DNA of 64,000 nucleotides from Escherichia coli. GTDB lineage: Bacteria; Pseudomonadota; Gammaproteobacteria; Enterobacterales; Enterobacteriaceae. The notes below the pieces were generated by a model. That model was given only the letters and a program-made list of their open reading frames with translations, had not been told where the DNA came from and did no database searches. How positions within the stretch are numbered: position 1 is the first letter of the stretch; each line of letters begins with the position of its first letter. The position numbers were made by a program, and so were the translations under genes. Positions 21,058-23,652 of the stretch are shown here, one piece after another. Location of the stretch: the NCBI RefSeq assembly GCF_013122565.1, contig NZ_CP053258.1, one strand, 5' to 3'.

Positions 21058-22970
21058 CAGTTGCTTTGGCCTTCCAGCAGCATCTGCTCAAGCTGCTCCT
21101 GGGCTTCCAGCCACGCCATTTCACACTCTTCCAGGCCGGATTTGGCGCTGGCTTGCTGTTGCAGGCAGGCGGTCAGCTCCGCTTTACGGCTTTGATCGTA
21201 CAGTTCGCTGTCGCCGAGTTTCTCTTCCGCCTGCGCCAGCTGTGCGTTCAGCTTTTCCATCTCTTTTTCCAGACGGGCGATCTCTTTACGCAGCGGTTGG
21301 GTTTGCGCACGCAGCTCCGCTTCCCGACGCTTCTGATCTTTACGTGCCTGGGCGCTGTTTGCGTTCTCTTTTGGCGCTTCGTCGGTCTGGTTTTCTTGCT
21401 TTTGTACGTCGCTCAACCACTGTTGATAATCTTCCAGATCGCCGTCGAACGGTTCGACTTTACGATCGTGAACCAGGTAGAGGTCGTCAGTGGTGGAACG
21501 CAGCAAATGACGGTCGTGCGAAACGACAACCAGCGCGCCTTCAAACTCGATTAATGCTTCGGTGAGTGCCTGACGCATGTCGAGGTCAAGGTGGTTAGTC
21601 GGTTCGTCGAGCAGCAGCAGATTCGGCCGCTGCCAGACAATTAATGCCAGCACCAGGCGGGCTTTTTCCCCACCTGAGAAGCGGCGCGTTTCTTCGGTTA
21701 CTTTATCGCCCTGGAAACCAAAGCCGCCGAGGTAGTCACGCAGTTTTTGCTCCAGTTCCTGCGGCGCTAAACGTGCCAGATGTTGAATAGGCGATTCGTC
21801 GGCGCGCAGGTATTCAAGTTGATGCTGGGCGAAGTAGCCGAGCTTGATCCCTTTTGCCAGGCCTATTTCACCACTGACTGGCGCAAGTTCACCGGCTAAC
21901 AGTTTGATTAATGTCGATTTACCCGCGCCGTTGCGGCCTAACAGACCAATGCGCGAACCGGGGACCAGATTCAGTTTAATCGAGTCGAGAACAATGCGAT
22001 CGCCATAGCCTGCGCTGACCTTTTCCATCTTCAGTAACGGATTTGGCAGACTTTCCGGCGCGCGGAAGCTAAAGCGGAACGGGTTGTCGACGTGCGCGGG
22101 GGCAATCAGCTCCATACGCTCGAGCATCTTAATGCGGCTCTGGGCCTGCTTCGCTTTGGTGGCTTTGGCACGGAAACGGTCGATATAACTTTGCAGATGC
22201 GCTACGCGTTCCTGCTGGCTTTCGTACATCGCTTGTTGCTGCGCCAGACGGGTGGCGCGCTGTACTTCAAACGAACTGTAGTTGCCGGTGTACTCGAACA
22301 TGCTTTGTTGTTCGATATGAATAATTTTATCGACGATCGGATCGAGGAAGTCGCGGTCGTGAGAGATCAGGATCAGCGTGCCCTGATAGCTCTTCAGCCA
22401 TTTTTCCAGCCAGATAACGGCATCGAGATCGAGGTGGTTAGTCGGTTCGTCGAGCAGCAGCAAGTCTGAACGGCAAATCAGCGCCTGGGCAAGGTTAAGA
22501 CGCATACGCCAGCCACCAGAGAAATCACTTACCGGGCGCTCCAGTTGTTCATTGCTGAAACCGAGGCCGTGCAGCAGGCTGGCGGCACGGGAGCGAATAC
22601 TCCATGCGTCAATAGCATCCAGCTTGCCATGAATGGTCGCAATGGCGTGCCCGTCGTTACGTTCGTTGGCGTCGTGTAGCTGCGCTTCCAGTTGACGATA
22701 TTCACGGTCGCCGTCAATGACATATTCCAGCGCCGCTTGCGGTAACGCCGGCGTTTCCTGATTCACCCACGCCAGTTGCCAGCTTCCCGGAAAGGTGTAG
22801 CTGCCGCCGTCGGCGCTGATTTCATTTTTCAGCAATGCCAGCAGGGTAGATTTACCACAGCCGTTTTTACCCACCAGGCCGACTTTCTGCCCGGGGTTGA
22901 TGGTGGCGGTGGCATTATCCAGCAGGACGCGCACGCCGCGACGAATTTGTAACGAGGAGAAAACAATCAT
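21057..22970 (-). CDS. yheS: ABC-F family ATPase YheS (two ABC cassettes, no membrane domain)
   Basis: 637-aa ORF-track protein with duplicated Walker A (GKNGCGKST, GRNGAGKST) and ABC signature motifs plus coiled-coil C-terminus. Confidence 0.95.
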   Translation of the reverse strand: MIVFSSLQIRRGVRVLLDNATATINPGQKVGLVGKNGCGKSTLLALLKNEISADGGSYTFPGSWQLAWVNQETPALPQAALEYVIDGDREYRQLEAQLHDANERNDGHAIATIHGKLDAIDAWSIRSRAASLLHGLGFSNEQLERPVSDFSGGWRMRLNLAQALICRSDLLLLDEPTNHLDLDAVIWLEKWLKSYQGTLILISHDRDFLDPIVDKIIHIEQQSMFEYTGNYSSFEVQRATRLAQQQAMYESQQERVAHLQSYIDRFRAKATKAKQAQSRIKMLERMELIAPAHVDNPFRFSFRAPESLPNPLLKMEKVSAGYGDRIVLDSIKLNLVPGSRIGLLGRNGAGKSTLIKLLAGELAPVSGEIGLAKGIKLGYFAQHQLEYLRADESPIQHLARLAPQELEQKLRDYLGGFGFQGDKVTEETRRFSGGEKARLVLALIVWQRPNLLLLDEPTNHLDLDMRQALTEALIEFEGALVVVSHDRHLLRSTTDDLYLVHDRKVEPFDGDLEDYQQWLSDVQKQENQTDEAPKENANSAQARKDQKRREAELRAQTQPLRKEIARLEKEMEKLNAQLAQAEEKLGDSELYDQSRKAELTACLQQQASAKSGLEECEMAWLEAQEQLEQMLLEGQSN

Positions 22971-22999
22971 AAGGCGCCGTATGTTCAGACTATGTTAAC

Positions 23000-23014
23000 T
23001 TATCATTATGATAA
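23000..23014. promoter_or_regulatory. Perfect 7-1-7 palindrome TTATCAT-T-ATGATAA in the yheS/kefG divergent promoter region
   Basis: Read directly from sequence; partial Fur-box-like similarity, or overlapping divergent -10 elements; regulator unassigned. Confidence 0.35.
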
Positions 23015-23097
23015 TGTAATGTATGGGCGAGCTGCCGCACCGGGCGCAATGGTAGCCCAAAACAGCGACTATACACAAAAACCATACCGGGAGGGGG

Positions 23098-23652
23098 ATG
23101 ATGTCTCAGCCAGCGAAAGTTTTGCTGCTGTATGCCCATCCGGAATCTCAGGACTCGGTGGCAAACCGGGTACTGCTTAAACCGGCCACGCAGCTCAGCA
23201 ATGTTACCGTGCACGACCTTTACGCGCACTATCCCGATTTTTTTATTGATATCCCCCGTGAGCAGGCATTACTGCGCGAGCACGAGGTGATTGTCTTTCA
23301 GCATCCTCTTTATACCTATAGCTGCCCGGCGCTACTGAAAGAGTGGCTGGACAGGGTATTAAGCCGTGGTTTTGCCAGCGGGCCGGGAGGAAACCAACTG
23401 GCGGGAAAGTACTGGCGTAGCGTGATTACCACCGGCGAGCCGGAAAGTGCTTACCGTTATGACGCGTTGAATCGCTACCCGATGAGCGATGTCCTGCGCC
23501 CCTTTGAACTGGCGGCGGGCATGTGCCGGATGCATTGGTTAAGTCCCATCATTATTTACTGGGCGAGACGGCAAAGCGCACAGGAGCTGGCGAGCCACGC
23601 CAGAGCCTACGGTGACTGGCTGGCAAATCCGCTGTCTCCAGGAGGCCGCTGA
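23098..23652 (+). CDS. kefG: KefB ancillary protein KefG (flavodoxin-like quinone oxidoreductase fold)
   Basis: 184-aa ORF-track protein; stop overlaps kefB start (TGATG). Confidence 0.94.

Follow-up and report, generated by a model that had tools for sequence, protein, structure and literature searches.

A perfect 15-bp palindrome between yheS and kefG of Escherichia coli is probably an incidental feature of an ArcA-P operator built of direct repeats

ArcA-P operators placed over sigma-70 promoters, of the class represented by trxC, are built of TGTTA-type direct repeats that lie on one strand in 11-bp phase. In the study of Park et al. (2013, PLoS Genet, PMC3798270; hereafter Park 2013), the ArcA box was taken as an 18-bp element of two such repeats 11 bp apart with a cut-off of at least 10 bits, and kefGB-yheV was placed among the operons directly repressed by ArcA. 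The trxC site contains three direct repeats, the distal one 22 bp away, with a strong second repeat and an overlap with the -10/+1 region of the promoter; its DNase I footprint was 48 bp long and was read by the authors as two adjacent dimers on four repeat slots (Park 2013). Two other described systems bear comparison with the locus considered here: the Fur box (GATAATGATAATCATTATC), an AT-rich element with ATTAT/GATAA hexamer-like units in 7-1-7 geometry, and the convergent overlapping promoter pairs of divergent genes, whose 5' ends of opposite sense overlap.

In this work, a palindrome in the divergent promoter region of yheS and kefG was analyzed within a stretch of 64,000 nucleotides of E. 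coli DNA, which is referred to as the window. Positions 23000-23014 of the window read TTATCATTATGATAA, a perfect 7-1-7 inverted repeat TTATCAT-T-ATGATAA with its centre at T23007. The preliminary description of this DNA had reported a perfect 15-bp palindrome 30 bp from yheS and 84 bp from kefG; direct reading of the sequence confirms the palindrome and both distances (from its edge at 23000 to the yheS ATG at 22970 on the minus strand, and from its edge at 23014 to the kefG ATG at 23098), and the two gene names agree with the RefSeq annotation of E. coli. According to our analysis, the palindrome is probably no functional unit by itself, and its bases are a segment of the kefG core promoter and the weak third slot of an ArcA-P operator of about 43 bp. 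The features of the region are as follows.

22968..22970, minus strand: yheS start codon (sequence and annotation)
22981..23023, plus strand: ArcA-P site with three direct repeats (match to Park 2013; ranks 1st and 4th with our own matrix)
22981..22990, plus strand: ArcA direct repeat 1, ATGTTCAGAC (ATGTTCA), 4.8 bits in our own single-repeat scoring
22984..23012, plus strand: promoter-like TTCAGA-17-TATGAT, 9/12 matches, its -10 overlapping the right half of the palindrome
22992..23001, plus strand: ArcA direct repeat 2, ATGTTAACTT (ATGTTAA), 10.6 bits, overlapping the kefG -10
22993..23001, plus strand: predicted kefG extended -10 TGtTAACTT, hexamer TAACTT at 22996-23001, deduced from the start at 23008
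23003..23012, plus strand: degenerate third-repeat slot, TCATTATGAT (TCATTAT), core of the palindrome, 0.5 bits as an ArcA repeat
23008, plus strand: start of the kefG transcript, an A immediately right of the palindrome centre (Kim et al. 2012, as quoted in Park 2013 Table S6)
23014..23023, plus strand: distal ArcA direct repeat, ATGTAATGTA (ATGTAAT), 22 bp from repeat 2, 6.8 bits
about 23041, minus strand: start of the yheS transcript, at -71 relative to the ATG (Mendoza-Vargas et al. 2009, 454 sequencing)
23049..23054, minus strand: yheS -10 element TACCAT (printed as GCTACCAT in Mendoza-Vargas et al. 2009), about 40 bp from the palindrome
23098..23100, plus strand: kefG start codon (sequence and annotation)

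The full predicted ArcA-P site of kefG, printed with its three direct repeats as ATGTTCAGACTATGTTAACTTATCATTATGATAATGTAATGTA in Table S4 of Park 2013, is identical to window positions 22981-23023, and the palindrome falls inside it, between repeat 2 and the distal repeat. The three repeats were given scores of 2.9, 10.5 and 7.1 bits in that study, and the third-repeat slot at 23003..23012 was not called in its scan. Table S1 lists the yheS/kefG ChIP-seq region as enriched 3.4-fold and scores its ArcA-P box at 12.9 bits; the signal was present in one of the two ChIP-seq replicates only, and the region was retained because its box reached at least 10 bits. In the arcA mutant, expression of kefGB-yheV rose 2.8-fold (p = 3.8e-5; Table S5), and sigma-70 occupancy at kefG was lower under anaerobic conditions (Table S6), whereas yheS is absent from the table of differentially expressed operons (Park 2013). 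A position weight matrix that we built from 115 of the 128 boxes of Park 2013 gave 12.4 bits at position 22992 and 11.3 bits at position 22981, the first and fourth ranks among 127,966 window positions on both strands; thus, a box of at least 10 bits is found at kefG both by the published score and by our own. Repeat 2 belongs to the top 0.01% of 7-mers in the window. The bases of the palindrome do not form an in-phase ArcA repeat, with a score of only 0.5 bits for TCATTAT in the third slot; its right arm, ATGATAA, is repeat-like (mean of 4.5 bits among core species) but is located at +16 from repeat 2, out of phase.

By these properties the kefG site resembles the trxC class closely, since it shares the 11-bp-phased TGTTA-type repeats on one strand, the set of three repeats with the distal one 22 bp away, the strong second repeat, the overlap with the -10/+1 region, and the derepression of its operon in the arcA mutant. 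It differs from that class in the weakness of repeat 1 (2.9 bits in Park 2013), in ChIP evidence that comes from one replicate, in footprint evidence that comes by analogy from trxC, and in the palindromic sequence that in E. coli happens to separate repeat 2 from the distal repeat. The preliminary description had offered the palindrome as a possible binding site for an unassigned regulator; this stretch had in fact been assigned to ArcA-P (Park 2013), and what is recognised there is the set of direct repeats, while the inverted symmetry is not conserved. The regulatory content at kefG has been known since 2013, and the symmetry is most likely a by-product of it.

The positions of the mapped starts define the place of the palindrome in the two promoters. 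Table S6 of Park 2013 locates the ArcA-P site at -27 to +16 of a kefG start "determined by Kim et al. 2012", and our conversion of this span, in which an NC_000913.3 coordinate equals 3504259 minus the window position, places the start so quoted at 23008. The extended -10 that would serve this start has its TG at 22993-22994, and the same TGTTAA forms the core of ArcA repeat 2; we infer that this -10 overlapped by a strong repeat is a classical arrangement for repression by occlusion. The yheS start, at about 23041, probably rests on one 454 read, judging from the table entry "1". Relative to these published starts, the palindrome extends from -8 to +7 in the kefG promoter and occupies +27 to +41 in the 5' untranslated region of yheS, and therefore neither of its halves is the -10 element of a mapped start. 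This result contradicts the suggestion that the halves serve as -10 elements for the divergent promoters, one GATAAT on each strand: the kefG hexamer at 22996-23001 lies upstream of the palindrome core, the yheS -10 is at 23054..23049, no half is found 6-8 nt upstream of a published start on its own strand, and GATAAT itself occurs on the plus strand only (23010-23015), the minus strand reading GATAAG and also CATAAT.

We propose that under anaerobic or reducing conditions phosphorylated ArcA would bind the in-phase repeats ATGTTCA (22981), ATGTTAA (22992) and ATGTAAT (23014), probably as two adjacent dimers over four repeat slots by analogy with the trxC footprint, so that the palindrome would be covered by protein. 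As repeat 2 coincides with the kefG extended -10, RNA polymerase would be excluded and kefGB-yheV would be repressed about 3-fold. The inverted symmetry itself would arise from the short AT-rich repeats TTATCA, TTATGA and TAATG. In this scheme we infer the identity of the -10, the coverage of the palindrome by ArcA dimers and the lack of a role for the symmetry. As to the general reading of the preliminary description, its view of the stretch as promoter DNA of a divergent gene pair bound by a transcription factor was right, and its three specific readings were not.

The frequency of such palindromes agrees with this interpretation. The window contains five perfect 7-1-7 palindromes, compared with 4.3 +/- 2.0 expected from first-order Markov simulations. 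Shuffling of the 127-bp intergenic region yielded a perfect palindrome with 7-bp arms at p = 0.005 for a spacer of 1 and p = 0.024 for spacers of 0-4, and as a window of this length holds dozens of intergenic regions, about one such palindrome is expected by chance. Hence, the palindrome is real, yet it is not beyond chance. Its sequence is of low complexity, composed of TTATCA, TTATGA and TAATG units, and inverted repeats arise readily in such AT-rich DNA; a second palindrome, the 6-1-6 repeat CATTAT-G-ATAATG, overlaps the first one. A search of the 64-kb window for a further copy of TTATCATTATGATAA with up to two mismatches found none. Within the species, the identical palindrome is present in the K-12 record; a 401-bp query around it matched 5,424 of 5,426 complete E. 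coli genomes, with yheS and kefG annotated, and the surrounding 44 bp were at least 99% identical in 5,406 of these 5,424 genomes. At the species level, near-invariance of this DNA is unremarkable.

The comparison across species was based on 80 yheS loci from species-representative genomes and on an alignment of 47 intergenic regions of Enterobacterales. The divergent kefG-yheS arrangement is retained throughout Enterobacterales and in Vibrionaceae. Three deeply conserved blocks were observed in the 47 regions: 35 nt beside the yheS ATG, a block containing TACCAT, and the ribosome-binding region of kefG. The first of these blocks holds repeat 1, repeat 2 and TGTTAAnTT; ATGTTAA of repeat 2 is nearly invariant across Enterobacterales, and TGTTAAnTT is conserved across the order. 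The kefG-sense ArcA box was the top ArcA match of the 3.7-kb locus in 36 of 50 Enterobacterales loci, and it reached at least 10 bits in 24 of these 50 loci versus 3 of 29 loci outside the order. At -11 from repeat 2, 87% of the core Enterobacteriaceae loci and 60% of the other Enterobacterales loci have a repeat scoring at least 3 bits, and the distal repeat was found at +22 in 87% of the core loci and at +21/+22 in 36% of the others; at most other offsets, repeat-like 7-mers were present in 0-3% of loci in both groups. The ArcA repeats and their phasing at -11, 0 and +21/+22 are thus conserved. Conservation of the box across Enterobacterales strengthens a site backed by one ChIP-seq replicate, and this independent comparative support is one of two modest gains of the present analysis, the other being the apparent face-to-face promoters of kefG and yheS.

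As a separate observation, the homologous box is much nearer to the consensus in Photorhabdus (loci L044, L045 and L056), Yersinia (L027 and L059) and Mangrovibacter (L026). The box scores amount to 15-19.6 bits in these genera, compared with 11-12 bits in E. coli, and to judge by these scores ArcA control of kefG may be stronger outside Escherichia. The block GCAATGGTAGCCCAA at 23046-23060, which contains TACCAT in the yheS sense, has a conservation of 96% in the core group and 76% in the wider Enterobacterales, and this provides comparative support for the yheS -10 and the start at -71.

The symmetry of the palindrome behaves differently from the direct repeats. Of the 15 core Enterobacteriaceae compared, only four show it in perfect form, namely E. 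coli, E. albertii, one Phytobacter and one Citrobacter; the majority of the other core species carry TTGTCAT-T-ATGATAA. The arms pair at 5 or 6 of 7 positions in the core species that lack perfect symmetry and at 0-5 of 7 outside the core group, where the palindrome is absent. Symmetry-breaking changes of four kinds were found in the core species, at 23002, 23008, 23011 and 23014, and for none of the four was a compensating change seen on the opposite arm. Perfect symmetry hinges on base 23002, where Escherichia has A and most of its relatives have G. These uncompensated breaks, together with the absence of the palindrome outside the core group, imply that the symmetry is not maintained by selection. 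The bases of the third-repeat slot are nevertheless strongly conserved within the core Enterobacteriaceae, where their value of 98% (65% in the wider set) exceeds that for the distal repeat (78%) and by far that for the next 22 bp (67%). The constraint on the slot is therefore greater than ArcA repeat recognition explains. It could plausibly come from the start site and the initial transcribed sequence, or from a secondary -10, TATGAT.

Several other explanations of the palindrome were weighed against the ArcA operator with incidental symmetry. One of them treats one or both halves as secondary -10 elements, either TATGAT (23007-23012, with TTCAGA as the -35) or GATAAT for a second kefG promoter starting near 23019-23022, or CATAAT (23011..23006) for a proximal yheS promoter. 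TTCAGA-17-TATGAT, with 9 of 12 matches, is the sole sigma-70-type match returned by our scanner in the region (one found, 0.2 expected), TATGAT is kept in most core Enterobacteriaceae and could account for the 98% conservation of the slot, and CATAAT agrees with the consensus at 5 of 6 positions. Against this, TATGAT itself contains the published kefG start, and the one published for yheS is at -71, so that among the published starts of the two genes none corresponds to TTCAGA-17-TATGAT; TATGAT is missing outside the core group, where TGTTAAnTT is universal, CATAAT has neither a -35 nor a TG partner, and the minus strand does not offer GATAAT. We regard such secondary promoter elements as rather unlikely. 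Less probable still is that the palindrome serves an unassigned dimeric regulator as a symmetric operator at the kefG start, in spite of its perfect symmetry in E. coli, its classical repressor position over +1, and the strong conservation of its sequence in core Enterobacteriaceae and near-invariance in E. coli. Eleven of the 15 core species deviate from perfect symmetry without compensation, the symmetry is lost elsewhere although kefG-yheS synteny is kept, the motif has no second copy in the 64-kb window, where palindromes occur at the chance rate, and a literature search linked no other regulator to the yheS/kefG region. In that literature, what the genomic SELEX papers of Ishihama name for these genes is just a promoter internal to yheS-yheT and a site in kefB, and a MazF paper cites kefG solely because of a cleavage that lies 22 nt before the ATG. 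A variant in which a second regulator shares the palindrome DNA with ArcA and RNA polymerase, and thereby underlies the 98% conservation in the core group, likewise appears improbable to us; placed on the kefG start, where the transcripts of kefG and yheS would run head-on into each other, such a regulator would weigh potassium efflux by KefGB against ribosome rescue by YheS.

The two remaining explanations concern iron and RNA structure. The palindrome had been noted for its partial similarity to Fur-type arrays of NATWAT hexamers without being a canonical Fur box, and a non-canonical Fur site would tie kefG or yheS to iron. By the permissive model of three adjacent hexamers, it matches in the RRR orientation at 14 of 18 positions, which is reached by 1.2% of local shuffles, and the 7-1-7 unit at 10 of 14; however, the first score is tied at eight or nine window positions, mostly in coding sequence, and the second one is reached at 33 window positions. 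With the 19-bp consensus the agreement is 12 of 19, as good as at 81 window positions and in 15% of AT-rich-core shuffles. Although the palindrome shares AT-richness, hexamer-like units and 7-1-7 geometry with the Fur box, its half-sites are everted relative to TGATAAT-N-ATTATCA, and T and A stand in place of the consensus G and C. These mismatches and the background-level score uphold the remark that this is not a canonical Fur box, and they reduce the Fur-type similarity to one of composition. Among the papers found in the literature search, none reports Fur binding here, and we consider a Fur site very unlikely. Even less credible is an RNA hairpin in the yheS 5' untranslated region, or a DNA cruciform. 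The palindrome would indeed be transcribed in the yheS leader if the -71 start is correct, but the hairpin is worth only -2.4 to -2.9 kcal/mol, neither complete leader folds more stably than its shuffled versions (z-scores of -0.10 and +0.42), no Rfam match, compensatory change or covariation was found, and the kefG mRNA holds the right arm only. In a comparison made by eye, none of the FNR, NarL 7-2-7, RcsB, IHF, DnaA, CpxR, OmpR and H-NS motifs fitted the palindrome, and the PhoP and TorR boxes resembled repeats 1-2 only through the shared family of direct-repeat sites.

Apart from the question of symmetry, the published starts face each other, with kefG on the plus strand at 23008 and yheS on the minus strand at about 23041, which gives the two transcripts antisense 5' ends that overlap by 34 bp, as in the convergent overlapping promoter pairs of divergent genes. 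Interference between the two promoters would be conceivable; the yheS start is thinly supported. ArcA bound at 22981-23023 would occupy +19 to +61 of the yheS transcript and could block elongation there, and such face-to-face promoters could couple redox control of potassium efflux to the translation factor YheS. An mRNA initiated at 23008 begins with 5'-AUG AUA AUG UAA, i.e. with a 5'-terminal AUG that opens a three-codon frame (23008-23019); about 11 of the 15 core Enterobacteriaceae retain a stop as the fourth codon, which may simply mirror ATGTAA of the distal ArcA repeat.

The yheS side of the intergenic region shows an overlap of several constraints. The 35 nt that precede the yheS ATG (22971-23005, minus strand) form a leader, AAUUUAACAUAnUCUGAACAUACGGCGCyUU-AUG, that is nearly invariant in Enterobacterales, and a search of these 35 nt for a Shine-Dalgarno match found none; their opposite strand carries ArcA repeats 1-2 and the kefG extended -10. 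At 22968-22983 a near-palindrome, CATAAGGCGCCGTATG, pairs at 7 of 8 arm positions around the centre GGCGCC. It spans the yheS start codon and the beginning of ArcA repeat 1, and it is more deeply conserved than the palindrome at 23000-23014, in a region constrained by the overlapping functions of the yheS leader, ArcA repeats 1-2 and the kefG extended -10.
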